DNA from: a virus
Taxonomy: Duplodnaviria; Caudoviricetes
Strand: one strand, 5' to 3'
Length of the DNA: 34,323 nucleotides
Virus record (IMG/VR): IMGVR_UViG_3300038530_000222
Coordinates: 1 to 34,323 of that record
Part shown: positions 6,502 to 30,271 of the stretch, piece after piece
Position numbering within the stretch: position 1 is the stretch's first letter
How the letters are laid out: each line of letters begins with the position of its first letter
Notes under the pieces: model-generated
The model's database searches: none
What the model was told of the DNA's origin: nothing
Seen by the model: the letters and a program-made list of their open reading frames with translations, nothing else
Translations under genes and position numbers: made by a program

Positions 6502-9147
6502 TTATACAATAGTTAAGACAGAAGTAGCAGGGATGTTAAGGGTTGCATTAAGAGTTAATGGTCCAAATACACCTGCGTTTATATTAGATGCACCATTACC
6601 AATTGTATAGTCATTGTCCATAGAATTTTCATTTTCGTGAAATACATTTTCTGAATTACCGGCGGCTCCTGATTGTATACCTGTAAGAGCAGATCCATCT
6701 ATTGAAGGTAATGCAGAAGGAAATCTTGCAGCAGGGATAGTGCCAGATGTTAAATTAGATGCATTTAAATTAGTTAAATCTATTGTTTCAAAACTTGGTG
6801 CAGCATTATTATTAGCTCTTAAGAATTTTCCATCATTACTAGATGTACCATTTGCAAAACTAGCAGGTGTTACCGTACCTGCACTAGGTGTACCAATACT
6901 AACTGTTGCTCCAATAGTAACTATAAAATAATCAGCCCCAGTAGGAGGTGGTGCAGCAAATACAATTTCACTACCGTCTAATGCAAAACCTTCTGACGGT
7001 TGTCCTGTACCAGAATTAGGTTTTTGTACAACGCCATTAATGCTGACCAACATTTGTTGTGCAAATTGACCTGCGTTGCTTAACGTAAATTTATAGGCAG
7101 AATTATTAAACGTTGCACTATTACCACCAGTACCACTAAAACTGCTAATAGTATTTATAAAGAAACTACCAATAGTTTGTGTTTCTTCCCATGCAGAAGT
7201 GCTTGAGTTATATACAAGTAATTTTCCTAAATTTGTATTGAAAAATAAATCACCATTATTTAAATCAGTTGTTGGGTTTAATGCTCCAACTCTGTATCTT
7301 GCTGCAAAATCATTAACAGAATTCATATTATTGGCAACTGTATTTACATTTGCAATGCTGCCACCTACGTTGTTGACGTTTGTAATGCCACCTGCAACAG
7401 TATTAACGTCAGTAATATTACTAGCGACTACACCAATATTGTCATCTCCTACAGCAATAGTATTACCCATGCTGTTACCATGCTGTGTGCAGTAATAACG
7501 TAATGAGCTAGGTGCATTTGAAGGTACAACAAAAGTTACATTTGCATTTGCCTGACCTGCTTGTCCGTTAGTTGTTACGCCAGTTGTATATGCATTACCA
7601 CTTGCATCTTTAAAAGCTAATGGGTGGTTGTTGTTTGTACTATCTGCTTGATTAAATATATATGTATATCCTCTAATCAAACTTAATGTTGGATTTGCTG
7701 TACCATCAATGTAAAAAACACCATTAGCTACAGTAACCGTATACGTTGTTTGACCTGCTAATACCTGACCTAAAGCATTAATATCGCTAATACTATTACC
7801 AACAAGATTTACGTTTGTAATGTTATCTGCAACTGTTTCTATTTCAGAACCATTTGATTCTAATAAATCTTCTGCTGTTGTAATTACTTTTTGGATATCG
7901 CTTGCTACTGTATTTACAGTTGATATATTATTTGCAACTGTATTAACATTATTAATATTTGTTCCTACTGTATTGACATTAGAAATATCTCCACCTACAG
8001 CATTAACATTACCTATTGCACCTGCAACTGTATTTGTATTAGCTAAATCAGTTCCAGTAATATTTACAACTAACCAAGATGTTGTGCCTAAGTCATAAAC
8101 TTTAGTTATGTTATCTGTTGTGTTGTAATATAACGCTCCGTCTATTAATGCATTACCGTCATTATCTGTAGCCGGGTCACTAGTTTTTGCTCCTAAATAC
8201 CTGTCATCAAAAGTATCAAGTGCTAATTCTGCTGCTGTTTGTGCGGTTTCCGCAGCCGTTTTAGCTGTTTCTGCTGCTGTTTTAGCTGTATCTGCTTGTG
8301 TAGCTTTATTTGTTGCAGTTGTTGCAGATGCTGCTGCGTTAGTTTCAGATGTAGCTGCTGCTGATGCACTATTAGCTGCGTTAGTTTCACTAGTAGCTGC
8401 TGCCGTAGCAGATGCTGCTGCTGCGTTTTGTGCAGTAGTTGCTGACGCTGCATCTACAATAAGATCCCAATTTGCAGAGTTAGTATTAGTTGTTAGTGGT
8501 TGTGATCCTTGAGATGTATGTGCTGTATTACAAAAGAAAATATTATTTGTAGATGTATCTTTCACAAGATCTCTTACAGCATAATCACGACCTGCTACCC
8601 AATCACCTCTGTATGTACCTAATTCTTTTAATACTTGAAACTCACCTAAATTATCAAAACCTAAAACTTTATTAGCACGATTAGCAGCATTTTGTGTAAT
8701 TTCTAAACTACCAATAGTATTAGTTAATGAAAATTTAATTGATCTATTAATTTCATCTTGTTGTTGTTGATGTAAAATTACTGCTTTATCTAGTGCGTCA
8801 TTAATAACTTCTGGATAAAAACCACCTTGGTTTGTAAGATCTGTACCTTGTAACGGTTCAAGTGCAGATGTGATAACAAGTTGAAAACCAGAAGGTAAAT
8901 TAAAATCATTACCGCCTTGTTTAAGTGTTATGCTTCCACCGGGATTTCCGTTTTGATCCTCGTTTAATGTGACTATGTAATCATTACTTGCTCCAAGAGT
9001 TAATGTAGTTTCTATACTTGTACTTACTTCTAATTTTTTTACAACTACATCTGCGTCTGTAAAAACTTTAAATGCAAAAGGAAACTGAGCAGTATTTCCA
9101 TTCCCGACTAAGTTACTCGTCTTTCTTGTAGTCGAATTTATCGTCAT
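6502..9147 (-). CDS. Main tail fibre (virion-anchoring N-terminus, repeats, cupredoxin-like domain, C-terminal docking domain)
   Basis: GNGNTAQFPFAFKVF...DLTNQGGFYPEVINDALDK anchor typical of podovirus fibres; Ala-rich and VNTVA repeats; position after the ejection proteins. Confidence 0.9.
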   Translation of the reverse strand: MTINSTTRKTSNLVGNGNTAQFPFAFKVFTDADVVVKKLEVSTSIETTLTLGASNDYIVTLNEDQNGNPGGSITLKQGGNDFNLPSGFQLVITSALEPLQGTDLTNQGGFYPEVINDALDKAVILHQQQQDEINRSIKFSLTNTIGSLEITQNAANRANKVLGFDNLGEFQVLKELGTYRGDWVAGRDYAVRDLVKDTSTNNIFFCNTAHTSQGSQPLTTNTNSANWDLIVDAASATTAQNAAAASATAAATSETNAANSASAAATSETNAAASATTATNKATQADTAKTAAETAKTAAETAQTAAELALDTFDDRYLGAKTSDPATDNDGNALIDGALYYNTTDNITKVYDLGTTSWLVVNITGTDLANTNTVAGAIGNVNAVGGDISNVNTVGTNINNVNTVANNISTVNTVASDIQKVITTAEDLLESNGSEIETVADNITNVNLVGNSISDINALGQVLAGQTTYTVTVANGVFYIDGTANPTLSLIRGYTYIFNQADSTNNNHPLAFKDASGNAYTTGVTTNGQAGQANANVTFVVPSNAPSSLRYYCTQHGNSMGNTIAVGDDNIGVVASNITDVNTVAGGITNVNNVGGSIANVNTVANNMNSVNDFAARYRVGALNPTTDLNNGDLFFNTNLGKLLVYNSSTSAWEETQTIGSFFINTISSFSGTGGNSATFNNSAYKFTLSNAGQFAQQMLVSINGVVQKPNSGTGQPSEGFALDGSEIVFAAPPPTGADYFIVTIGATVSIGTPSAGTVTPASFANGTSSNDGKFLRANNNAAPSFETIDLTNLNASNLTSGTIPAARFPSALPSIDGSALTGIQSGAAGNSENVFHENENSMDNDYTIGNGASNINAGVFGPLTLNATLNIPATSVLTIV
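8230..8450 (-). repeat. Ala/Thr-rich coding tandem repeats in tail fibre
   Basis: AAATSETNAA occurs twice (gctgcgttagtttca at 8333 and 8375, 42-bp period), followed by 7-aa AKTAAET repeats. Confidence 0.85.
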
Positions 9148-9210: not shown

Positions 9211-12200
9211 TTATTTTCTTTGTCTACGTCCAGATTTACCTGTAACTACACCTCTAATAAAGTCTATTGGTCCTTCCGGTTCTACTCTACCAGTACTAAC
9301 ATCTTGTAAATAACCAAGTGGTCTACCTAATATTGTTAATGGATAGTTGCTTAATAACGACAAAAGAGTAAATACATCTTTAACATTTTTACCAGTTACA
9401 TCTTTTTTAGGATCTAATACAGCTTGCAACGCACGAACTGAACCTGTAGTACTACTTTCTAATGTAGATATAGATGGACTTGTGGATATACGGTCATCAT
9501 ATGGCTTGTCATTTAATACATTAAAAGGAACAGGCAATATGTTTCCACCGGGAATAAATGCAAGGCCAAATCTTAATGGTTCAAAAAATAACAACTCAAA
9601 TATTTCATCAAGATATCCATCTTCATCTGCATCATTTAAATTACCTCCAAAGAAATTAACAATAACGCCAGATACAACTGCCGGTAAATACAACCCAAAC
9701 ATAAATGTATATATTAATCTACCACTACCTTTACCAGTAATTTTATATCCCATATCGTTTACCATTTTTTTATAGTTTGTGTCGTTTAAATTTGCCATCA
9801 TGTTGAAATAACTAGTAAATTGCAACAATGATTGCACTAATGGTGTATCAGTTTGAAATGCTGCTCTGTCTTCTGGTTGTAAACTATCTTGTGTCATACG
9901 CACATTTGCATCAGCTTGTGCTATAGCTTCTTTTTGTGCCACAGCATCTGGCATAGACATAGGTTTGTTAGCTAAAAATTGATTGTAAGAACCTATCCAT
10001 ACAACACTATCAACTTGGTTTTGAAATGCTTGTTGTATAAAATATGCGTGTTTGTTTGTCCATGCGTTTATTTTTTGAAATTTATCTGGATTAATAATTA
10101 AATCATTTAATGTATCTTGTATATCAAACATTTGATTATTTTGACGTTGATCCATAAAAGGTGATAACTCTGCAATAATTTCTTGTGTTTTTGCAGGGTT
10201 CAAATAATATTGTTTTAAACCACTTCTCATATATTTGCCTTCAACTTTTATAAGTGATGGAAAATTACCAGTAAATTGTTGTACAGCATTTTGAAAATTA
10301 GCAAACATTATACTATGTCCAGTACGTTTTCTTAATCCTTTAAAAAATGCGTCTGCTAAATCGTTATTACCACGCAACATTGTTGTTTGCCGTGCTGCGT
10401 TATTAAGCCAAGGTAACAACATATAATTAATTGCAGATGGTTTAACGGCATCAAGTGCAGCAGCAAATTCTTTATTTTTAATTATTTTCAATACATCTGT
10501 TACGGCAGGTTGTACATATGCAAAACGCAAAGCGTCATCTATGTGTTTTACCATTGCATTTAAATGTAAAGATAATGGTCGGTTATATTCAACACGAGTC
10601 TTAGTAAAACCTTTTTGTACAGCAGGTAATGACAATCTAAAATCAGTTTTTAAATCTTCTAATGCTGCATTTCTTTTTGCATCATCAACCGCATCTATAT
10701 CAACTTTTGCAGGTACATAACCACCTCTGTATGTACCATATTTATTTATAGTAGGACTTGCTTCAACAACTTTAAAATAATAACCAAAAACATTTCTATG
10801 GGTTTTTTGCATAAGAGGTAGCATTTCTTCGTTTAAATCCCATACAGCTTGTAAAAAATCAAAATCTTTTTTAGTTAAAATATTTGAATCAATCATGCGT
10901 TTAACAAACGTATCCCATTGTCTAGTATCTAACGATCCATCTTCTTTTAATTTGCCCCATCCTCTACCTAATAATAATTTTCTTAAATTACTTTTATTAC
11001 CTGTGTGCAACATAGCTCCAAGCAATTCGACTTTACCTCTACCACTATGTATTTTGCCAAATTTATATGGGTCATCAAATTCGTTAGCAACAATAATAGT
11101 TTCTCCAAAATCTACGTCTTCCAACATTTCAGCATATCTTTTTGTGTATTTAATTTGTGCTGTTCTATATTCTGTAAGACTATTTTTAATTGGACGCCAT
11201 ATATATTTTGTAAATGGCCCTGCTTCTAATCCTTCACGTTGCAATACAGCACCACTCATTTGTCTTGTTGCACCATCAAATTCATCTGCCCAAGGCTCTA
11301 CTCTTCTCATTCGTGCTTTCTGATCCTCAATCATAGAACCTAATTTTTCTAATCTTGATACAGCTTCTGTCATGCCTTTTATTTTTGCTTTAGGCATTTT
11401 TTGCATTGGTTCTACTAATTCTGGAATAATTGCATCTAATTCTAATTTTTTTCCTTCTATTTCTATCTGTCTTTCTCTTCTTGATTGATACCATAAAGAT
11501 TGTATAACTTCATCTAGTGAATCAAAATCTTCTACTGTTAAATCTTTTATATCTTTAAGTTTAGTAATTTCATTAACTTCTTTAAAAATATTTGTAGTAT
11601 TTCTAAGGTTTGATTGTTCTCTTATAATTGGTTCTAATTCTACATATAAATCCTCATTATTTTTTTTTAAATTTTCTATATATACGTTTGGTGATTCTAC
11701 AGCAGGGCCAAAACCATAACTAGCTAATATAGTTTTTGCAACATTTACTAAATCTACATTTCTTGTATCTTTCATATCTTTGTCTGATTTCTTAAATAAT
11801 TTTTTAAAATTATCTGTTGCTTTGTCATAGCGTTTATGTATTTCTATAGCTTCTTTTGCTAATTGGTTGTTTAGCAATTGTGCTTTTTTGGCTTGTATTG
11901 TTGCTTGATTATCGCCTTCACGCATTGCTTTTTCTGCTGCTTTAGTTGCTTTTGCTTCTTGTCGTGAAAATAATGTAGGTCTTACTTCTCTTAATGTTTT
12001 TTTAGCTAATATATCTTTTGCTACTTGTTTTGCTGCTGCTACTTGTAATCTTTGTGGCTGCATTACAGTAGCTAAAAATCTTAATTCAGTTGCAATAAAT
12101 CTTGCTCTAGCTTCGTTATGAAGTGCTTCCTGTACTTCTAATTCTTGTTGTCGTGGATCTGTTAAATTACTAAACTCGTCAACCATACGTTGATCTGTTC

Positions 12201-15200
12201 TTTCTTTAATAACATTTTTTATTGGTTCTAAATCAACAAGTGCATTTATCATATTTATTGGATCTTCGTACCCAAACATTTCTGCAATTGTTTGTACTGG
12301 CATACCTTTTTTAGAAACCATGCCGTATTTACCTGTACCAAGTTCTTTAATTAATGCATTTGCTGCTGCATCGTCATAAAATGGCAAAATATTTTTTATA
12401 CTATCTGGATGTATTTTATTACCTTCTTTTACTACAACTTTTTCACCTTTATCATTAATAGTTTCACCACGTTTTAAATATTTTTCTAATCTATATATTG
12501 TTTCATTTTCTGCTTTTGCTGTTTCTTCTGCAATAACTTGTTTGCGTGTAGCGTTAACTTGCTTTTGTAAATCTTTTAAAACTTTGCTTCTAGCATTTGA
12601 CAACCATTTTACCTGTCTCATACTAGATTTACTTAATTGATCAATAGCAACTTCTTGTGCTTCTTGTATAGCAGCACTATATTTTTGCCATGTCTCGTTA
12701 TCCATGCCACTTTCTTCCTGTGTAGTAAACATAGCTTTCATGCCATACACACGTTGTGATTCTATTATTTGTTCTTCACTTGCTATCATGCGATCCATTA
12801 CACCTCTTACTTCATCTGTCAAAACTGGTAAATCTATTCCATTTTCTTGTCGATATATAACATTTAATTCATCTCTAATAGACTTATATATTTTGCGTAA
12901 AAATTGACCAAATCTATTAAATATATCTTGTAGGTTTTTATTAGGTGCTGCTTTTTTCTCAGTTATATATATTTCATAATTGTACGCAAAAGCTTCGTGA
13001 TATTTTCTTTTTTGATTTATATCTAATTTGCTCCATGCATCTACACTTTCTACTCCCCAAAATTTTAACAATACATCAAAATCATTTTGTATTTCAGGAG
13101 TTGCCGTACCAGATACGGCTAAATCTTCCATAACAGTTAACATATAATGAGCAGTTTCATGTAAAAAGGTTGAAAGATCTGCTTCTTTTGTAAGTATTGC
13201 TGTTAATGTTTTTGGATCAAATCCACCTCTTGCACCTTTAGATTCTTGTTGTTTATAAAATTCTCCTACTTTTACTCGAATAGATCCTCTAGGCTTTCCA
13301 ACTGAGAGTCTGTAATCTTTTCGTCCGTTAGGGAATTCATCATCGAGACTAAGTCTAGAAGGTTCGACCCGGATGGCAACTGCTGTATCGCCATAGCCAG
13401 TATCTGTGATAGCTCTGGTGGTAACGTAGACATCAGGTTCAGCAGCACTTCTGAGTTCACCTGTAGCCCTAATTCGTTCTGCGTTTCTTCTACTGGTGTG
13501 ATGGTAGACGGTAACTGTTCCGTCTGGGTTAAGGGGGAGTTCTGTGGTTTCGTCAATGTTTGTGTCTCCTCTTCCTTGTTGTTGGAAAGTATCAACCTCT
13601 CGTATCTGTCCAGATCTTCCAACATCTCGTTGTGTGTCTCTTGATTGCTCCTCGGATTGTACTGATAACTCATTGTCTACCTCCTGTAATGTAGATTGTA
13701 TGTCAGCTTCTGATATACCCATTCTAGCAACTAAAGTTGCAGCAGCATTGGCATAATCAGGTGCTGCGTTATCTTCGTAACCTGTTTCTATTACATCTTC
13801 CTTAAGTTTTGCAGTATCATATAATTTTTTTTCTGGATACCACATTAATGCTTGTAAATCAGCCATCGTTAAATTTGGATTTTGTTGTTGTAATACTGGC
13901 AACACTTGTCCAAAAACTTTTTCTATAAATCTTCTTTCTGGTGGTCCTTTAGGCTGTTCTTTTTGACCATCTAAATACCCTGCTAATGAATTACCTGCTT
14001 TTCTTATTTCATCTCCAATACTTATTCTTTTTTCACCTTTTATAGGTTTACCTTTAATGTTTGTTATTGTGTCTGCAACATCATTGTCGGGTTTGATTAA
14101 AGATATTTCTGCCATTAAATCACGATTTGCAGGTACAGTAGTTCTAGTTTCAATTCTTTTTGCAACTTCATCTAAATCACCTAAAGTTAGTTTTCTTCCA
14201 AGAATTGTTTCAAATGCCTTTTTTTGTTCTTTAGTTAATGCTTTTATATATTGTTTTAATTGCTCACGTTTATTTTTAGCTTGCTTTGTATAGTCAGTAA
14301 CTAGCGTACCTGTCATTCGACCCCATGTACGCATAGCCCATCTATCTAAAGTTAATTGTTCATAGTTGCCATATAAATTTGCAAAAAATCCATTACCAAT
14401 TTTTGGTCCTATAACAGCAGCACCATATACTATTTCAGTTTTACCAAACTCTTTAATTAAAACACCTGTGTATGTTTCTACTTCTTTTACTGTATGTGTT
14501 GTACTCATAAATTTTTCTACATCTTCTACACCATTTTTTTCAATTAATTCATTTATTAATTTAAAACTTTTTGTCATTGCACGACCTGCTTTACCTTGTC
14601 CAAAAGGTACTGGAAACTTACCATTTTCTTTCCAGTAGTTGTACACTTCTTGCGTAAGTTGAAAGTTTGTATTTACGTCTATGCCATTAGATGTAGTTGC
14701 TAAAGCCCAAGTAAAAGCAAAATTTGATGCTGTATCAATAAGTAATTCTGGATAAACTTTTGCTAATAATGCTTTGGCTTTTGTAACTTTTTCGTTGTAC
14801 CAACCTATTGCGTTTGGGTTTTCTACTAATGCGTATTGTGCATCTGCTAATAATGTTCGTACTAAATATTTTTCTGTCTCAACACTAAAATCTGATAAAT
14901 TAGCACCTGCCCTTTTAGCAGCAGCTAGAATACGTTTTTGTATTTCAACTTTAAAATCTTTAATAGTTCCAAAAGGCTTGCTACTTGCAAAATCAAAATT
15001 TTCTACAATTTTTGCTAATTGAAATACTTCTTCTGATACTGGTTTGCCTTGCTCTTGTGGTTTTGCCTGTTGTGCAAACAATTCTTGTTGTTTTAATATG
15101 TCTGCTGTTTCTCTAGACCATGTACCGCTGTTAAATGTTGACTTAACTGCTGTATTATCAAAAACTACAACTTCGTCTGTACCGTTTTCACCTCTAAGTA

Positions 15201-17565
15201 TTGCACCATCATGGCCTTCGTCAATTAATCTTTGCTTAAATCCTTCCGCAGCTTGTTCGCCACCCATCCGTATATCTGCTTTTTCTTTAAATGTTGCGTA
15301 ATATGGATTTTCTAATCGTGCATACAATGGCATTATATTGCGACCTGCATCACCTCTTTTGTTTATTGTGTATACATTTGCACCTGCTGCTGCATCCTTA
15401 CCTCGATACATATATACACCTTTACCTAGCCAACCAAAATCTTTTTTATTTGGATGATCTAAATTAAATTCGTTAACACTATCTCGTGTACCGTGATACA
15501 ACACTTCTGGTTTACCATTTTTCTTTAAAACTGATTTTCCAAAAAAGTTTTTAAATTGTGGCGTATTTAATCGTACTGAACCATCTTGATTAAACAATTG
15601 TTGTTCTGGTGATATTTGTATTTGATCCTGTCTAACAACTGTATATGGAAATCTAGCTGCAAATTCTTTAGGTGTTATACCTAATTTATTTGCTTGTATA
15701 ACAACAAAATCACGAAAAAATGTTGACGCAGCATTTACGTTAATAGGTGAATATAAACCAGTAGCTTTTAATTGATTAGCTAAATCTTTTTTTACTTGTG
15801 CTGCACTAGCTTCAAATTCTTTAGATATTTTGTTTTGTTTTTCAAGAACTTCAATAGCTTCTTTTCTTAATGCATCTTGGTTTTGTTTAAAATTTGCAGC
15901 TTCAGCACGGCTAAAACCATCTTGATCGACACGCAAATGATCTTGTAAAAAACCATCAAACTGTGTACCTGCTAATTTTGCTGCATATTCACTAGTGCTA
16001 ACTACCACATCACCCTGCCCACCTGATTTATTAATTTCTATTAATTGTTTTGCAATGCTAGGTGATACTGCATCTATGTCTTCTAGTGTTATTCCATTGT
16101 CTATTATTGCTTGATTTAATATTTCTGCATCAATGTACAATTCTTTAACATTTTTATCTTCAGCTAAATTTTCTACAAACTTTTGAAATTCATTTGGATT
16201 TCTTATTCTTGTTTTATTGTTAACAGATTTTTCTGATAAATTTTCTATAAATGCAGTATCTGTTTTTGCCTTGTTAGCTTTGGTAATATCTGAAATAAAT
16301 GTTGGTCCACTTCCTACTAAACCTACAAGAGTCATCCCTTTCATAGTTTGTATAAAAGTTTGACCTAGCCTTTGGCCTACTTCTTGTAATCCTTCTGCAT
16401 TAGTAAGTTTATAATTTAAATCTTCCTTATCACTAAATGCTACTGCTATATCACGACCTACAATATTAGACAATTCTTGCAATACTTCTGTACCTGCTTC
16501 TGTTATATTTCCACCTATATAATTTTTAACAAATTGTGTAATTGCTTGGCGTCCAGTAGGTTTTGCTAATTCTTTTACAATTGATTTTGTAGCGTATTTA
16601 GATAATTGTTTTCTTATAGGAGCAGTAACAACACTAGCTCCATACCATTCCAATAACATATTAGTAAGACCAACACCAGTTGCTATGTGTTTTACTGTTT
16701 GATCATTAACACCTTCAGTTAATTTTAATTCTTCTACAAGATCAAGATATGTAGAACCTGCTTCTATTTGGTAAGTTTCATATCCTAACGTTCCTAAAAA
16801 CCCTACAATAAATCCACCTTTAGCTGTAAATATAGATCCCGGTCCTGTAACTGAACCTAATCCAAATCCTAATGCTGCACCAACAGAACCACCTTCTAAA
16901 GCTGTAGGTAAAGTTTTAGAATATTGACCAAAAATAGCAAAACCTTCTTCTAATATTCCTGACCCATCACTATTTAATTCTTCTAACCTTTGATTAATTT
17001 CTGCTAATTCTGTATTTAATTCTTCATTCCCTTTACCAGATTTTTTTAAATTACCAATTTTTCCTCTTCGTACATTTAATCTACCTTTTTCCCAACCTTG
17101 CAATATGTTGTCTGGTGCTCTTTTAATAGCGTCAAATGCATATTCTAATCCTTCTAAATCATTTATATTGTCATACGCTAAAGCTGCAAATGTTGGATCA
17201 GTAAGTTGACGCATTAATACTGGACTTTTTTCTGCTAACGCAAAACTTAATATTTTTTCCTTTTTGTTTTTTTCAGCTAATAGTCTAATTGCTTCTTCGC
17301 TATCTAATGCAAAATCTTTTGGTAAATTTAATTCTTCTGCAAGTTTTAATCCTTCTCCAACCATGTCAGGATCTTTTTCTAAAACAGAAGTTAATGTTTG
17401 TTTTAATTCTGCTCTAATTTGATTTTGTCTATCTTCTTCTCTTTTTTTTAAAGTGTCTAAAAAAGGGTTTTCTGTATTTAAAGTATTTAAATTTTCAGCA
17501 TAATTTTGACTAGGTGCTAATTCTTGTCTTTTATTTAAAGTGTCTAAAAAAGAATTTTCGCTCAT
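9211..17565 (-). CDS. Giant internal virion (ejection) protein, polyvalent: ART, HhH-glycosylase-like, second ART, zincin metallopeptidase
   Basis: 2784 aa; third ejection-protein position; SD AAGGAGG. Motifs: YHGT..GVY..GHDG..EVVVF; GWY..GPKIG.FFANL..TLDRW..LQALMW; YHHT..VYVTT..YG; TFLHETAH..HEAFA. Confidence 0.85.
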   Translation of the reverse strand: MSENSFLDTLNKRQELAPSQNYAENLNTLNTENPFLDTLKKREEDRQNQIRAELKQTLTSVLEKDPDMVGEGLKLAEELNLPKDFALDSEEAIRLLAEKNKKEKILSFALAEKSPVLMRQLTDPTFAALAYDNINDLEGLEYAFDAIKRAPDNILQGWEKGRLNVRRGKIGNLKKSGKGNEELNTELAEINQRLEELNSDGSGILEEGFAIFGQYSKTLPTALEGGSVGAALGFGLGSVTGPGSIFTAKGGFIVGFLGTLGYETYQIEAGSTYLDLVEELKLTEGVNDQTVKHIATGVGLTNMLLEWYGASVVTAPIRKQLSKYATKSIVKELAKPTGRQAITQFVKNYIGGNITEAGTEVLQELSNIVGRDIAVAFSDKEDLNYKLTNAEGLQEVGQRLGQTFIQTMKGMTLVGLVGSGPTFISDITKANKAKTDTAFIENLSEKSVNNKTRIRNPNEFQKFVENLAEDKNVKELYIDAEILNQAIIDNGITLEDIDAVSPSIAKQLIEINKSGGQGDVVVSTSEYAAKLAGTQFDGFLQDHLRVDQDGFSRAEAANFKQNQDALRKEAIEVLEKQNKISKEFEASAAQVKKDLANQLKATGLYSPINVNAASTFFRDFVVIQANKLGITPKEFAARFPYTVVRQDQIQISPEQQLFNQDGSVRLNTPQFKNFFGKSVLKKNGKPEVLYHGTRDSVNEFNLDHPNKKDFGWLGKGVYMYRGKDAAAGANVYTINKRGDAGRNIMPLYARLENPYYATFKEKADIRMGGEQAAEGFKQRLIDEGHDGAILRGENGTDEVVVFDNTAVKSTFNSGTWSRETADILKQQELFAQQAKPQEQGKPVSEEVFQLAKIVENFDFASSKPFGTIKDFKVEIQKRILAAAKRAGANLSDFSVETEKYLVRTLLADAQYALVENPNAIGWYNEKVTKAKALLAKVYPELLIDTASNFAFTWALATTSNGIDVNTNFQLTQEVYNYWKENGKFPVPFGQGKAGRAMTKSFKLINELIEKNGVEDVEKFMSTTHTVKEVETYTGVLIKEFGKTEIVYGAAVIGPKIGNGFFANLYGNYEQLTLDRWAMRTWGRMTGTLVTDYTKQAKNKREQLKQYIKALTKEQKKAFETILGRKLTLGDLDEVAKRIETRTTVPANRDLMAEISLIKPDNDVADTITNIKGKPIKGEKRISIGDEIRKAGNSLAGYLDGQKEQPKGPPERRFIEKVFGQVLPVLQQQNPNLTMADLQALMWYPEKKLYDTAKLKEDVIETGYEDNAAPDYANAAATLVARMGISEADIQSTLQEVDNELSVQSEEQSRDTQRDVGRSGQIREVDTFQQQGRGDTNIDETTELPLNPDGTVTVYHHTSRRNAERIRATGELRSAAEPDVYVTTRAITDTGYGDTAVAIRVEPSRLSLDDEFPNGRKDYRLSVGKPRGSIRVKVGEFYKQQESKGARGGFDPKTLTAILTKEADLSTFLHETAHYMLTVMEDLAVSGTATPEIQNDFDVLLKFWGVESVDAWSKLDINQKRKYHEAFAYNYEIYITEKKAAPNKNLQDIFNRFGQFLRKIYKSIRDELNVIYRQENGIDLPVLTDEVRGVMDRMIASEEQIIESQRVYGMKAMFTTQEESGMDNETWQKYSAAIQEAQEVAIDQLSKSSMRQVKWLSNARSKVLKDLQKQVNATRKQVIAEETAKAENETIYRLEKYLKRGETINDKGEKVVVKEGNKIHPDSIKNILPFYDDAAANALIKELGTGKYGMVSKKGMPVQTIAEMFGYEDPINMINALVDLEPIKNVIKERTDQRMVDEFSNLTDPRQQELEVQEALHNEARARFIATELRFLATVMQPQRLQVAAAKQVAKDILAKKTLREVRPTLFSRQEAKATKAAEKAMREGDNQATIQAKKAQLLNNQLAKEAIEIHKRYDKATDNFKKLFKKSDKDMKDTRNVDLVNVAKTILASYGFGPAVESPNVYIENLKKNNEDLYVELEPIIREQSNLRNTTNIFKEVNEITKLKDIKDLTVEDFDSLDEVIQSLWYQSRRERQIEIEGKKLELDAIIPELVEPMQKMPKAKIKGMTEAVSRLEKLGSMIEDQKARMRRVEPWADEFDGATRQMSGAVLQREGLEAGPFTKYIWRPIKNSLTEYRTAQIKYTKRYAEMLEDVDFGETIIVANEFDDPYKFGKIHSGRGKVELLGAMLHTGNKSNLRKLLLGRGWGKLKEDGSLDTRQWDTFVKRMIDSNILTKKDFDFLQAVWDLNEEMLPLMQKTHRNVFGYYFKVVEASPTINKYGTYRGGYVPAKVDIDAVDDAKRNAALEDLKTDFRLSLPAVQKGFTKTRVEYNRPLSLHLNAMVKHIDDALRFAYVQPAVTDVLKIIKNKEFAAALDAVKPSAINYMLLPWLNNAARQTTMLRGNNDLADAFFKGLRKRTGHSIMFANFQNAVQQFTGNFPSLIKVEGKYMRSGLKQYYLNPAKTQEIIAELSPFMDQRQNNQMFDIQDTLNDLIINPDKFQKINAWTNKHAYFIQQAFQNQVDSVVWIGSYNQFLANKPMSMPDAVAQKEAIAQADANVRMTQDSLQPEDRAAFQTDTPLVQSLLQFTSYFNMMANLNDTNYKKMVNDMGYKITGKGSGRLIYTFMFGLYLPAVVSGVIVNFFGGNLNDADEDGYLDEIFELLFFEPLRFGLAFIPGGNILPVPFNVLNDKPYDDRISTSPSISTLESSTTGSVRALQAVLDPKKDVTGKNVKDVFTLLSLLSNYPLTILGRPLGYLQDVSTGRVEPEGPIDFIRGVVTGKSGRRQRK
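13272..13673 (-). CDS. Nested overprinted gene (+1 frame), acidic 133-aa protein, candidate immunity/antitoxin
   Basis: AGGAGGT-AGACA-ATG start; the only same-strand alternative-frame ORF the track lists within the 8.3-kb gene; local GC rise. Confidence 0.65.
   Translation of the reverse strand: MSYQYNPRSNQETHNEMLEDLDRYERLILSNNKEEETQTLTKPQNSPLTQTEQLPSTITPVEETQNELGLQVNSEVLLNLMSTLPPELSQILAMAIQQLPSGSNLLDLVSMMNSLTDEKITDSQLESLEDLFE
13679..13685 (-). promoter_or_regulatory. Internal Shine-Dalgarno AGGAGGT
   Basis: Plus strand acctcct at 13679-13685, 5 nt from the ATG at 13673. Confidence 0.65.
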
Positions 17566-20631: not shown

Positions 20632-20665
20632 AGTATAACTACATGATATCTGCTTACGGTCACAC
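20632..20665 (-). promoter_or_regulatory. Putative late promoter copy 2 (GTGTGACCGTAA-N16-TATACT)
   Basis: Exact 12-mer at 20654-20665, 16-bp spacer, near-consensus -10. Confidence 0.8.
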
Positions 20666-23130
20666 TATCCACCCATAGCTACTTCTAATGTTAGACCCAC
20701 AATTGTAAGTGGTAATGGGTCTGTTTGTCGCACAAATAATTGTCCATTATCTTGCCATTGAGGAGTAAGCATAATTTTTATATCTTGTGTTTTTAAATCT
20801 GGTGGCGATCCATATGGTTCAGTTGTACGTTGTTTTGCTTCTACTAATTTATCTGCACTAGGACCTGCAAAAATACCAGACGATTCTAATACTCGTAACC
20901 ATACATGATTTAAATTTTTGACTCTACCTTGCCCAAATGCTTCTACTTGTAATGCCATAGGTAAAGTCTGCAAGTCAGCTTCTATAGGCAATCCAAGATG
21001 CACAATACTAGACGCACGGTCTAATGTAATAGAACCACTTGATACAACTTTTTGTGGATGCACAGCACCATCTGCCAATATGTTTATTGTTTTACCTTCT
21101 AAAAAATTAAGACCTGATATAACATTTCTTGCGACTTCATAAGTTGTTATTGCTGTATTTTGTAAATTAACAGGTAAATCTCTATCTAATTTTACCGTTG
21201 CTACTGTTTGACTTGTAGTAGATACAATATTACAACGATAATAATTTGTACCATCTACTAAAACAATTGCATCGCCAACATCATCAAGGCTAGGTGGTGC
21301 ATTAAATAAATTATAATTAGCAGTTATAGTAACGCTTTCTCCTTTTGTGTAGTTTGTACCGGCAGAAATAGTTACGTTTTGGCCTGTGTTTGTGTTTGTG
21401 CCGTTATATGTTGCCCCTGCATCTACAAAAAAATTATCACGTTGAGTTGCAAATAATCTTGTACCCATGCGTTCTACATAACGTTTGCTTGCACCATTTA
21501 TAGTTCTTTTTATTATGCAATATGTAACGTCATCGTTTCCTTCAGACACGCAAGCTACACTTTCAAAAGTGCCATCTGTATCGTGTTGATGCCATGCACC
21601 TATCTGTTGTTCTGGAACATATGTAAGACCTAATAATTTACCACTACTACTTACTTGCCATACAATAGGTATTGGTGACTTTGATAAAGCCATATCTATT
21701 ATTGTAAAATTATCAAACAAATGTGGAGCACGAAGAGATAAATCACCTGTAATAAAACCATTTGCTTGCCAGTTATAACCAAGTTCTCTTATATGACCAC
21801 CACGAGCAGCAGCATATACCAAGCTGTTATTAACAATTACTGGTTGTGCATTGTTTGCACCAACATATGATTGTGGTTTTACAGATATAGAAGTAGGAGT
21901 TATAGCATCACTATTAACAGAAGTTACACGCCATTCTGCCGATCCAGTAAGCATAAGTAAATTTGTTAATGGAACAATGTGTCTTATAGTATTTGCTTCA
22001 CGAGCAGCAACTCTAAATTCAATACGATCATCATCTCGTATAGGAATACCAAAAGACATATTACTTTCAGTACCTGATTTGGTCATCCATATATTTTGTG
22101 GTGCATTATTTGTACCTGCAAATACTCTGCGTTGTTCAAAATAAGATACAGCACCCGGATAGTTACCAGAACCAACAAAATCATTTTCATGTATTGGTGG
22201 TGTCTTAGAAAAATCTGGAGCAATGTTATCGTCTACTAATGATGTTCCAGTAGTTTCTCCTAAAAACCCATAAATACCACCTTGTTGTTTATATACTCTA
22301 TATCGACTAGCACCAGTAACTGCGTTCCAAGAAATAGTATTTTTAGCTCCAGTAACAAATATATTATTGTTTACATTTGTAGCTGATGATTGATTGCTTT
22401 CATCTACTAAATTAGCTTTTACAGCCGTTACAACATATTCGTGTGCTACATAAGTATCTGTACTTGTTGAAGTACTTGAAGGTATATACATAGAAGAACT
22501 TACATTAGTAGGTGGTGATAACGGACTACCAAAATCAATTACACGCAATTCCCATTGCGTTGCCCCAAGTCTTCTTAATTCTCTTGGTGCGTGATTAGGA
22601 TGCACTAATGTTATAACGTCAGCAGATTGCACATAATTTACATCAAACAATTCTGCTTCTAAATATGGATGCGGTATTTCATACACATTAGGATTTGTTG
22701 GCATTGCGTACCAACTAGAGTGAGGAGGTGTGCTGTTTGTATGTGCTACAACACAATAATAATTTACACCGTTATATAAAGCTATATCGCCAACTGCGTA
22801 AGTTGTAGAACCGCTCCATGCTGCACCATTGGTATAAAATAAAGTTTGTCCTTGTGTATGAAACCTAAAATATTGATCACCAAACTCAAGCACCATAGTT
22901 TGAGTTGTATTAAATGTAAAAGATAATAATCTTGTAGATTTTGTACTATCTTTAACTTCTCTTACAAATGCAAATCCCGGCCTATTTTGTGCAGGTCCTT
23001 GTGGTTTGGCAACAAAATTACGCATTGTTGCTGCACCTTGTTGAAATTTATTATCAGCAATACGGCCAAACATTTCTGGTGATATTTCACCTCCAGAAAA
23101 TGCTTGTTTAAAATTGCGTGTTACTGGCAT
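20665..23130 (-). CDS. Tail tubular protein B / nozzle (P22 gp10 / T7 gp12-like)
   Basis: FSGGEISP..GR.D...NF...PQG..NRPG start; YPGAVSYFEQRRVFAG; AWHQH; PLPLTI end. Confidence 0.9.
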   Translation of the reverse strand: MPVTRNFKQAFSGGEISPEMFGRIADNKFQQGAATMRNFVAKPQGPAQNRPGFAFVREVKDSTKSTRLLSFTFNTTQTMVLEFGDQYFRFHTQGQTLFYTNGAAWSGSTTYAVGDIALYNGVNYYCVVAHTNSTPPHSSWYAMPTNPNVYEIPHPYLEAELFDVNYVQSADVITLVHPNHAPRELRRLGATQWELRVIDFGSPLSPPTNVSSSMYIPSSTSTSTDTYVAHEYVVTAVKANLVDESNQSSATNVNNNIFVTGAKNTISWNAVTGASRYRVYKQQGGIYGFLGETTGTSLVDDNIAPDFSKTPPIHENDFVGSGNYPGAVSYFEQRRVFAGTNNAPQNIWMTKSGTESNMSFGIPIRDDDRIEFRVAAREANTIRHIVPLTNLLMLTGSAEWRVTSVNSDAITPTSISVKPQSYVGANNAQPVIVNNSLVYAAARGGHIRELGYNWQANGFITGDLSLRAPHLFDNFTIIDMALSKSPIPIVWQVSSSGKLLGLTYVPEQQIGAWHQHDTDGTFESVACVSEGNDDVTYCIIKRTINGASKRYVERMGTRLFATQRDNFFVDAGATYNGTNTNTGQNVTISAGTNYTKGESVTITANYNLFNAPPSLDDVGDAIVLVDGTNYYRCNIVSTTSQTVATVKLDRDLPVNLQNTAITTYEVARNVISGLNFLEGKTINILADGAVHPQKVVSSGSITLDRASSIVHLGLPIEADLQTLPMALQVEAFGQGRVKNLNHVWLRVLESSGIFAGPSADKLVEAKQRTTEPYGSPPDLKTQDIKIMLTPQWQDNGQLFVRQTDPLPLTIVGLTLEVAMGG

Positions 23131-29198: not shown

Positions 29199-29708
29199 TT
29201 AAATCTCCTTAGAATACATAATTTCTTGTACACCATATTTTAGCTTTGGTAGTAGCTTTGCTAAAGCGGTGTTTTCTTTAGCGTGCCATAGCATCAGTTT
29301 ACAGCCTTCAGATCTTGCATGATCTTCTGTGACCTTTAACAAACGCAATCCTAATCGCCCACCTCTGAATTCTTTTTTGACAAACAAAACGTCATTCTGG
29401 GTAACTCTTAGATCAGCATAATGAAAATGATGCATGATGATATTCATAGAATAACCAATACAGACATCGCCTTGCATTGCTAGATAAATAAACAAGAATC
29501 CGTTCTTGTCTACTGACTCATACATTGGCCAGTTTGGTTTTAGCTTCATTACCTGTTTGTTGCGAGCAATCTCTTCGTAATGCTCTTCAAACAATGGTTC
29601 TGCTAATACCTTAAATTCATCTAACGTGCAGAGTCTAATTTCTGTTTTAGGTACTCTACTTTCGTTTACAGTAGCGGTACTATCAGGAGTTACGGTCACA
29701 CTCGTCAT
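29199..29708 (-). CDS. GNAT-family acetyltransferase
   Basis: DVLFVKKEFRGGRLGLRLLK (acetyl-CoA motif A) ...ARSEGCK...LKY. Confidence 0.85.
   Translation of the reverse strand: MTSVTVTPDSTATVNESRVPKTEIRLCTLDEFKVLAEPLFEEHYEEIARNKQVMKLKPNWPMYESVDKNGFLFIYLAMQGDVCIGYSMNIIMHHFHYADLRVTQNDVLFVKKEFRGGRLGLRLLKVTEDHARSEGCKLMLWHAKENTALAKLLPKLKYGVQEIMYSKEI
29668..29701 (-). promoter_or_regulatory. Putative late promoter copy 4 (GTGTGACCGTAA-N16-TACTGT)
   Basis: Exact 12-mer at 29690-29701, inside the first codons of the GNAT ORF. Confidence 0.7.
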
Positions 29709-30271
29709 AGTGGATATTTAGTTACACAATCAAATATTATATGCACTCTGTCTGTCATGCCAACATTGTGTGCTGTGTGTAGTTCTTTATGGTTAAACCA
29801 CCAAACCTCACCAACCTCAAATTTTTGCTCTTGATCACCGCAAGTTTGGCTACACCATTTGTTAGATTTAAGTACAAGATGAAATCTGCTGTAGTGATCC
29901 GCATATGTGCCCTGATCATTGTGTTTTGTTACATGGCCACTAGGTTTTAAGTTAACAATAAGCAACCTACCCATGTCTTCAACTTCTAACTTTTCTAGTA
30001 TTGGTCGCATTAATGGCACAAGTGCAGGTTTTAAATATTCCATACACGGATAATCGTATGATCCTGTATCCCATAAGACGTAATATGCACTCATTTTTAG
30101 TGGTCCTCTAACGTATATCGACTCTGTGTCTTTATGTGGTGAGCCTGTAAACTTTTGGCGTGTCTCTATCTCCTTCCATAACTCTGGTTTATTGTCTAAC
30201 AATTGGAGCAATGGTTTTACATCTAAACCTTTTGCTATACGAACAAAATTAGATAACTTTGTATGGGTCAT
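29705..30271 (-). CDS. Aspartyl/asparaginyl beta-hydroxylase-family 2OG-Fe(II) oxygenase
   Basis: LKPSGHVTKHND (HxD), RFHLVL, GEVWWFNHKELHTAHN...RVHIIFD. Confidence 0.88.
   Translation of the reverse strand: MTHTKLSNFVRIAKGLDVKPLLQLLDNKPELWKEIETRQKFTGSPHKDTESIYVRGPLKMSAYYVLWDTGSYDYPCMEYLKPALVPLMRPILEKLEVEDMGRLLIVNLKPSGHVTKHNDQGTYADHYSRFHLVLKSNKWCSQTCGDQEQKFEVGEVWWFNHKELHTAHNVGMTDRVHIIFDCVTKYPL

Follow-up and report, generated by a model that had tools for sequence, protein, structure and literature searches.

A conserved gene overprinted in the +1 frame of a phage polyvalent protein gene, probably encoding an inhibitor of the adjacent predicted DNA glycosylase

The giant gene of a phage virion module contains, in its +1 frame, a second open reading frame (ORF) which, judged from its conservation, is a real overprinted protein-coding gene. 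Its product is probably a gene-within-gene inhibitor that shields the producing cell and the phage DNA from a virion-delivered predicted DNA glycosylase. The window, i.e., the whole stretch of 34,323 nucleotides that was analyzed (IMG/VR record IMGVR_UViG_3300038530_000222), comes from a BPP-1-like podovirus and covers its virion module, with portal, GP7 capsid, Bbp16, tail tube and internal virion protein. Its capsid is 83–85% like those of Limnohabitans phage DC33 and two spring-water phages. The giant gene (Table 1) is placed between the internal virion protein gene and the tail fibre gene. Its 2784-aa product is a homologue of BPP-1 Bbp10, and we infer that it is an ejection protein. It is composed of LPD22, ART, glycosylase, ART2 and peptidase parts and a conserved C-terminus, with PF18834 and PF18760 as the Pfam domains above cut-off. 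The combination of an LPD, ART-PolyVal and an HExxH motif in a virion-module protein identifies it as a large polyvalent protein. F/Y-x-Q(-Q) repeats lie at its module borders (15597-15586, 15081-15067, 13590-13576 and 13260-13246) and are candidate cleavage sites of the HExxH peptidase or candidate recombination points. In some loci (L009, giant frame of 1542 codons; L019, 1479 codons; and L551 of phage zth2-2), the giant gene appears to be interrupted, by a stop or a frameshift, close to the peptidase region or beyond it. Elsewhere in the window, a CBM_5_12 carbohydrate-binding module (E 2.6e-07) is inserted in a tail 'stabilization' protein (20665-23130), and a GNAT acetyltransferase gene and an Asp/Asn beta-hydroxylase-like gene are found between terminase and portal (29199-30271).

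Table 1. Features of the giant gene and of the ORF nested within it (positions in the window).
Feature	Position	Strand	Basis
Giant gene (2784-aa polyvalent protein, marine phage)	9211..17565	-	domain, homologue and gene-context searches
ART-PolyVal domain (giant-protein residues 682-813)	15127..15522	-	PF18760, E 8.6e-14
Predicted HhH-GPD DNA glycosylase-fold domain (residues 845-1300), DUF7178-related	13666..15033	-	model, fold match, weak DUF7178
Helix-hairpin-helix GPKIG (Lys1055) and LTLDRW (Asp1074), 19 residues apart	14338..14409	-	alignment
Shine-Dalgarno sequence AGGAGGT	13679..13685	-	sequence
Nested ORF; 133-aa acidic product, predicted to inhibit the glycosylase domain encoded upstream	13272..13673	-	ORF scan, conservation
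Core of the nested protein (codons 1-33), conserved, over the linker, inside the glycosylase module	13575..13673	-	alignment, pN/pS
C-terminal extension of the nested protein over ART2, specific to the clade	13272..13574	-	fixed codons
ART2, small ADP-ribosyltransferase/Tpt1-like domain (residues about 1334-1437)	13255..13566	-	model, Foldseek, Pfam
HExxH (HETAH) motif, likely zincin metallopeptidase domain	13147..13161	-	sequence; family context in the main text of PMC5512222

The 133-codon ORF given in the preliminary description was re-found by an ORF scan (13272-13673). It runs +1 relative to the giant gene over giant-protein residues 1298-1432 and has the start region AGGAGGT-AGACA-ATG (13685-13671). 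It is, as had been stated, the sole same-strand alternative-frame ORF listed in the giant gene, the other listed one (78 aa, 8223-8453) belonging to the next gene. Its Shine-Dalgarno (SD) sequence is written in the giant-gene codons for Q-E-V (CAG GAG GTA), GAG being rare in the giant gene (17 of 213 Glu codons), and a +1 stop (TAG) stands one codon ahead of the ATG. The longest stop-free +1 run in the 8.3-kb giant gene spans 134 codons and the next 42, with a +2 maximum of 47. When synonymous codons of the giant gene were resampled with the gene's own usage, one of 3000 trials produced a +1 run of at least 133 codons anywhere in the gene, and none of them left the +1 frame open at the nested ORF's own place. 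All 14 possible +1 stop sites are avoided in the nested ORF (product probability 4e-7); elsewhere, 265 of 405 are realised. This avoidance and the selection on the +1 frame in relatives bear out the dual-coding constraint on giant-gene codons that had been proposed. Earlier hand counts of G+C (59/120, 13/60 and 22/60) and of charged residues in the acidic product (23 D/E vs 6 K/R) were exact. Promoter and terminator signals near the internal start occurred at chance level only, and the RNA fold around it was ordinary (z -0.06). Metatranscriptome matches consisted of five short contigs from two runs, without strand or translation information.

Conservation was followed in relatives collected with the ART2 region (80 loci, 63 in the window's clade and 17 distant ART2 relatives). 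The nested frame was open in 63/63 clade loci, four of which end at a contig edge. Among 109 unique clade loci, the start codon was ATG in 78, TTG in 24 and GTG in 7, at a fixed place; GGAG or GAGG preceded it in all 109, and a +1 stop stood one codon upstream in 83. The core of the nested protein carries the motif Y-x-P-x-S-x-Q-E-x-x-N-E, with the Gln invariant in 40 alignment rows. Pairwise pN/pS values among relatives from five clusters, which are neither independent events nor tree-corrected, amounted over the linker to 0.82-12 in the giant-gene frame and 0.10-0.57 in the +1 frame, over the glycosylase core upstream of the linker to 0.14-0.35 and 0.88-1.24, and over ART2 to 0.42-1.05 and 0.48-0.88, respectively. 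The first 30 nested codons of one cluster were uninformative alone (1.08 and 1.06). In the first ~35 codons of the nested ORF, selection acts on the +1 frame, not on the giant-gene frame. Of 45 conserved giant-protein columns over ART2, 24 have a fixed codon, which ends in C in 7 cases; in the flanking domains, the figures are 22 of 116 and 10 of 52, with no fixed codon ending in C. The part of the nested frame that extends over ART2 for 100 codons, open in each of the 109 clade loci and in locus L376, is constrained, and the inhibitor model offers no explanation for it. Frame, start and +1 selection are kept across relatives and, together with the fixed codons, mean that import alone is not enough; the nested ORF is not an import artefact.

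The domain encoded upstream of the linker was modelled (residues 845-1300, ~450 aa) from 79 sequences with a pLDDT of 91. In a full structural alignment against 48,161 chains, the top 23 rows were all HhH-GPD-fold enzymes, the best being 3n0u (Tm1821; Z 10.8, rmsd 4.1, 197 aligned), with NTHL1 (Z 8.9) and phage PUGT (Z 7.6) as further matches. Foldseek with this model returned nothing at E<=0.001. Single Z values are moderate for a helical protein, and it is the agreement of the rows that argues for an HhH-GPD fold. A Lys and an Asp (K211 and D230 in the alignment; GPKIG and LTxDxW) are invariant in the 79 sequences. In EndoIII and OGG1, the hairpin Lys and the downstream Asp are 18-19 residues apart, and the aligned pair of the giant protein falls at this catalytic spacing, as in HhH-GPD glycosylases. 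Pfam DUF7178 matched weakly in 21 of the 79 members, and a literature search by that name found no paper. The domain is predicted to be an HhH-GPD DNA glycosylase.

The preliminary description had favoured the overlaid ART2 as the partner of the nested protein and named the adjacent glycosylase-like domain as a second option. Testing the +1 frame in ART2 homologues gave a divided answer: it was open throughout the clade (63/63 loci), but of the 17 distant ART2 loci, which lack the glycosylase, 16 had it interrupted. Five of these 16 are stand-alone ART2 genes, and the only distant locus with an intact frame is L075. ART2 as the defining partner was therefore abandoned, and the evidence picked the second option, since the nested gene is kept without ART2: glycosylase relatives lacking ART2 retain it, and most nested genes have no ART2 beneath.

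Loci gathered with the end of the glycosylase domain (386 sequences, 357 anchored, 181 unique with enough downstream DNA) were grouped into 42 clusters at 75% identity and scored for a +1 ORF of at least 35 codons starting 30-75 codons after the anchor. Such an ORF was found in 179/181 loci and 40/42 clusters, and in none in the +2 frame. Same-gene control windows (40 clusters) predict 12.6 clusters vs the 40 seen; when a ribosome site was included, 33 clusters were seen vs 2.3 predicted. In 200,000 simulations, 24 clusters (+1 ORF) and 11 clusters (with ribosome site) were never exceeded. A more distant set comprised 85 loci, of which 81 were anchored and 68 were both unique and long enough downstream, forming 26 clusters. 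It had the +1 ORF in 68/68 loci and 26/26 clusters (8.4 expected; +2 frame 0), with a ribosome site in 23/26 clusters (52 loci; 1.3 expected). Pooled, the ORF occurred at the glycosylase end in 66/68 clusters, with about 21 expected, over a GC3 range of 0.13-0.95. Exceptions were L297, with no nested ORF, and L384, with only 24 codons that include the motif; L374, scored positive, looks chimeric. Among the four unanchored loci, L469 has the nested ORF and L461 plausibly does, L470 being ambiguous. The ORF was present whatever downstream domain follows the glycosylase. Limnohabitans phage DC33 (PQ492659) has the glycosylase together with the nested ORF. The ORF also lies under the acidic tail of glycosylase genes that stand alone on megaplasmids of the alphaproteobacteria Methylorubrum, Bosea and Rhizobium. 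The stand-alone plasmid loci L466-L469 correspond to NC_012811, NZ_AP022849, NZ_CP140867 and NZ_CP016463, and the two Bosea plasmids each have a crotonase-family gene upstream.

Co-variation was analyzed in 1200 sampled pairs of 105 clade loci. The identity of the nested N-terminus was 0.91 when glycosylases were >80% alike and ART2 <75% (29 pairs), and 0.43 in the reverse case, with ART2 alike and glycosylases diverged (59 pairs). Its partial rank correlation was 0.59 with the glycosylase vs 0.22 with ART2. By these identities, the sequence type of the nested N-terminus changes over together with the type of the glycosylase. The nested core ends at the giant-protein motif TFQQQ. Four linkers of this F/Y-x-Q kind flank the modules, so the core lies within the glycosylase module. 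The earlier idea of a cassette moving with its effector module held up, as the nested gene is present with varied downstream domains and co-swaps with the glycosylase type. Nested-peptide profiles gave nothing above 6.8 bits in 18 glycosylase-less loci, phage zth2-2 (L551) being one such control, compared with 39-75 bits in five positive controls. Linkage to the effector and cognate co-variation with it are what sequences of an immunity or antitoxin gene would be expected to display; the linkage would also follow from physical adjacency alone.

For ART2 itself, the model reached a pLDDT of 92.8. Foldseek rows for Tpt1/KptA, RhsP2 and TreTu had probabilities up to 0.98 with E values of 0.07-0.2, none <=0.001, and the Pfam matches PTS_2-RNA and Tox-ART-HYD1 were below cut-off. 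The overlaid domain resembles these proteins only weakly, and the earlier label 'ART-like' is weakly supported. A protein search with ART2 gave no match. In other phages, ART2 occurs as a stand-alone gene of 112-121 codons (L070, L071, L073, L074 and L080), 63-70% identical to the embedded copy. A reading-frame scan of the giant gene found no nested ORF over the ART-PolyVal domain (15127..15522).

The nested peptides form three groups. Group A, the window's type, has the motif Y-x-P-x-S-x-Q-E-x-x-N-E; group D has Q-E-x-H-D/N followed by an amphipathic helix, and group B mainly that helix. Identity in the +1 frame vs the giant-gene frame was 0.48 vs 0.32 in group B, with the +1 third position most variable, 0.27-0.28 vs 0.21-0.23 in group D, and 0.33 vs 0.23 in group A, the last value being biased because the compared stretch was anchored on the +1 motif. 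The D profile scored above the 99th decoy percentile in 12/16 B, 9/26 A and 3/3 plasmid peptides, and profile-profile probabilities were 83% for B-D, 6% for A-D and none for A-B. Common descent of the B, D and plasmid peptides is likely from these profiles, and its extension to group A is suggestive. The extension over ART2 was also compared with the second helix of groups B and D; this candidate was rejected (profile <=6.5 bits, within the decoy range, max 10.2). Seven loci (L153, L208, L294, L296, L377, L380 and L383) share a different conserved nested C-terminal part of ~25 aa ending in F-G-F/A, which overlaps another shared downstream domain. The nested peptide is not strongly acidic in every lineage (12 D/E vs 14 K/R in L294), which makes DNA mimicry less supported.

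A different HhH-like domain lies ahead of the nested ORF in L075 (3702-4940) and does not match the first glycosylase profile; Ogg-HhH was found in 1/5 members of its type (E 0.0025). Polyvalent proteins of this type, with an SD-ATG +1 ORF at the end of the domain, are L075 and L471-L550. Their survey covered 80 loci, 75 of them anchored in 15 clusters, and one cluster, of 17, was excluded because its anchor was misplaced. Among 14 representatives, 9 had GGAG-ATG at one fixed place and 5 a slightly later SD-like start. The +1 frame has its own motif, roughly E-L-F-x-x-L-A-K-V-K-x-x-P, and its identity vs the giant-gene frame was 0.275 vs 0.196 when aligned on the +1 frame and 0.222 vs 0.204 when aligned on the giant-gene frame. 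As a lead, a nested gene of its own appears to be present in this second HhH-like family, which is unrelated to the first.

Under the inhibitor model, the giant protein would be made late, packaged and ejected, as for the homologous BPP-1 Bbp10, and its HhH-GPD domain would be an active glycosylase/AP-lyase damaging DNA in whatever cell holds it. The internal ribosome site would let the same mRNA give rise to the small protein as well, and synthesis of the inhibitor would then coincide in place and time with that of the effector. The nested product is small, acidic and likely helical, and it likely binds and inhibits the glycosylase domain. Since the inhibitor would be left behind at packaging or ejection, the domain would be active only in the newly infected cell, where it might be released by the HExxH peptidase at the F/Y-x-Q-Q linkers. 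The inhibitor core would sit between the last helix of the glycosylase and the module-ending linker, so that module swaps would move the effector and its cognate inhibitor together.

Other readings were weighed against the same data. The nested protein may be another kind of partner of the glycosylase, such as a folding chaperone, an activator or an adaptor for packaging or DNA targeting. This would account for the same co-occurrence and co-swapping, and nested Rz/Rz1 genes do encode cooperating subunits, but we consider it rather unlikely: virion-less stand-alone plasmid glycosylases keep the nested gene, so a packaging role is not general, and in effector-immunity systems the effector usually precedes a small acidic cognate protein, an arrangement that favours immunity. 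It is improbable that the nested protein instead targets the host cell, for example its repair glycosylases or AP-site enzymes, and complements the injected glycosylase. Phage DNA-mimic inhibitors of host repair exist, such as Ugi, and gp119 is reported as another in PMC13091555; however, the nested sequence tracks the phage glycosylase type rather than the host clade, and the protein would appear late, not at entry. Neutralisation of ART2, the main idea of the preliminary description, is very improbable given the broken +1 frame in 16/17 glycosylase-less ART2 loci, stand-alone genes included, and the lack of ART2 under most nested genes, although the open extension with its fixed codons in all 109 clade loci and L376 speaks for it; that extension may have a secondary role.

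Internal SD sequences can stimulate +1 shifts, as in prfB, and a frameshift could produce a giant protein that is cut short and carries a different tail; alternatively, the internal start could only tune translation. Either is very unlikely here, as 83/109 loci have a +1 stop one codon ahead of the start, the start, at fixed spacing, is always ATG, TTG or GTG, and the +1 frame is selected at the amino-acid level. That there is no gene at all, the open frame being a by-product of imported GC-richer DNA or of giant-protein constraint, is hardly credible. G+C is locally raised, and the nested protein has no named homologue and no Pfam or PHROG family above cut-off, but the ORF is conserved in 66/68 clusters over GC3 values of 0.13-0.95, and the giant-gene-frame pN/pS is near or >1 where the +1 pN/pS is 0.1-0.6. 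As for families and homologues, Pfam SieB (E 0.00086, 19.4 bits, below the cut-off of 26) was rejected for the nested protein, and a homologue search found 60 relatives, all of the window clade's type and none of them a named homologue. No match was obtained in annotated phages with the DNA of the nested-ORF region, and a 3-kb DNA search gave 9 matches of 37 bases each, i.e., chance. A sequence search of solved structures returned no useful match, and the best ESM Atlas match (0.79) is a lead only.

Inhibition of the glycosylase by the nested protein stays the reading that we prefer. With slightly less than even confidence, it can be widened: ejected polyvalent proteins may deliver glycosylase weapons, with self-protection by an out-of-frame inhibitor overprinted in the post-domain linker, of at least two origins (two HhH families, unrelated peptides) and missed by all annotation. 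Three GenBank phage records with the glycosylase-nested pair annotate the giant gene only, and the open-access literature, judged from listings and abstract starts, gave no report of such a nested glycosylase partner gene. If true, this would be a hidden class of effector-immunity pairs, with the first HhH-GPD glycosylase genes to contain the coding sequence of a protein inhibitor of their own product. It bears on the open question of how a toxic injected enzyme can be made and packaged without harm to the producing cell or the phage DNA, in polyvalent and ejection proteins without neighbouring immunity genes, and the question can be tested directly at this locus with two genes. The locus further suggests a glycosylase activity so far undescribed in polyvalent or ejection proteins, as well as small proteins that inhibit enzymes of the EndoIII/OGG1 superfamily fold, and toxic domains might be flagged by +1 genes in Arg/Gly/Asp-rich linkers of giant virion proteins.

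The giant-protein domain shares its fold and the Lys/Asp pair with known HhH-GPD glycosylases (Tm1821/Ogg, NTHL1/EndoIII) and phage PUGT gp46, but only 5-11% identity, with ~200/456 residues aligned and a large helical insertion. Ugi-type proteins are acidic glycosylase inhibitors, as is proposed for the nested protein, but Ugi blocks the host's uracil glycosylase, which has another fold, and not the phage's own HhH enzyme. In lambda Rz/Rz1, a phage gene is also fully embedded in the +1 frame and its product works with that of the enclosing gene, but these are spanin subunits for lysis, with no enzyme-inhibitor relation and no polyvalent protein. Polymorphic toxin effector-immunity pairs similarly have a small acidic cognate protein right after the toxic domain and swapped with it, whereas their immunity genes are normally separate downstream genes. 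The polyvalent proteins described in PMC5512222 have the same LPD22, ART-PolyVal, HExxH peptidase and swappable effector modules in a giant virion-associated protein; its main text contains neither 'glycosylase' nor 'overlap', and neither the domain nor a nested partner, and its supplements may name the domain otherwise. The Rpn (RpnL/RpnS) intragenic antitoxins of bacterial defence (PMC10400984; also treated in PMC10327210) resemble the present case, as proposed, in that an inhibitor of a DNA-attacking enzyme with cognate specificity arises from an internal start inside the enzyme's gene; inhibition has been demonstrated for Rpn, whereas for the nested protein it is a prediction. RpnS is in frame and constitutes the toxin's own C-terminus. 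The nested product is out of frame, unrelated to the giant protein and on the phage/plasmid side, and with its +1 frame and an HhH-GPD domain instead of a PD-(D/E)XK nuclease, the nested gene does not belong to the Rpn family.
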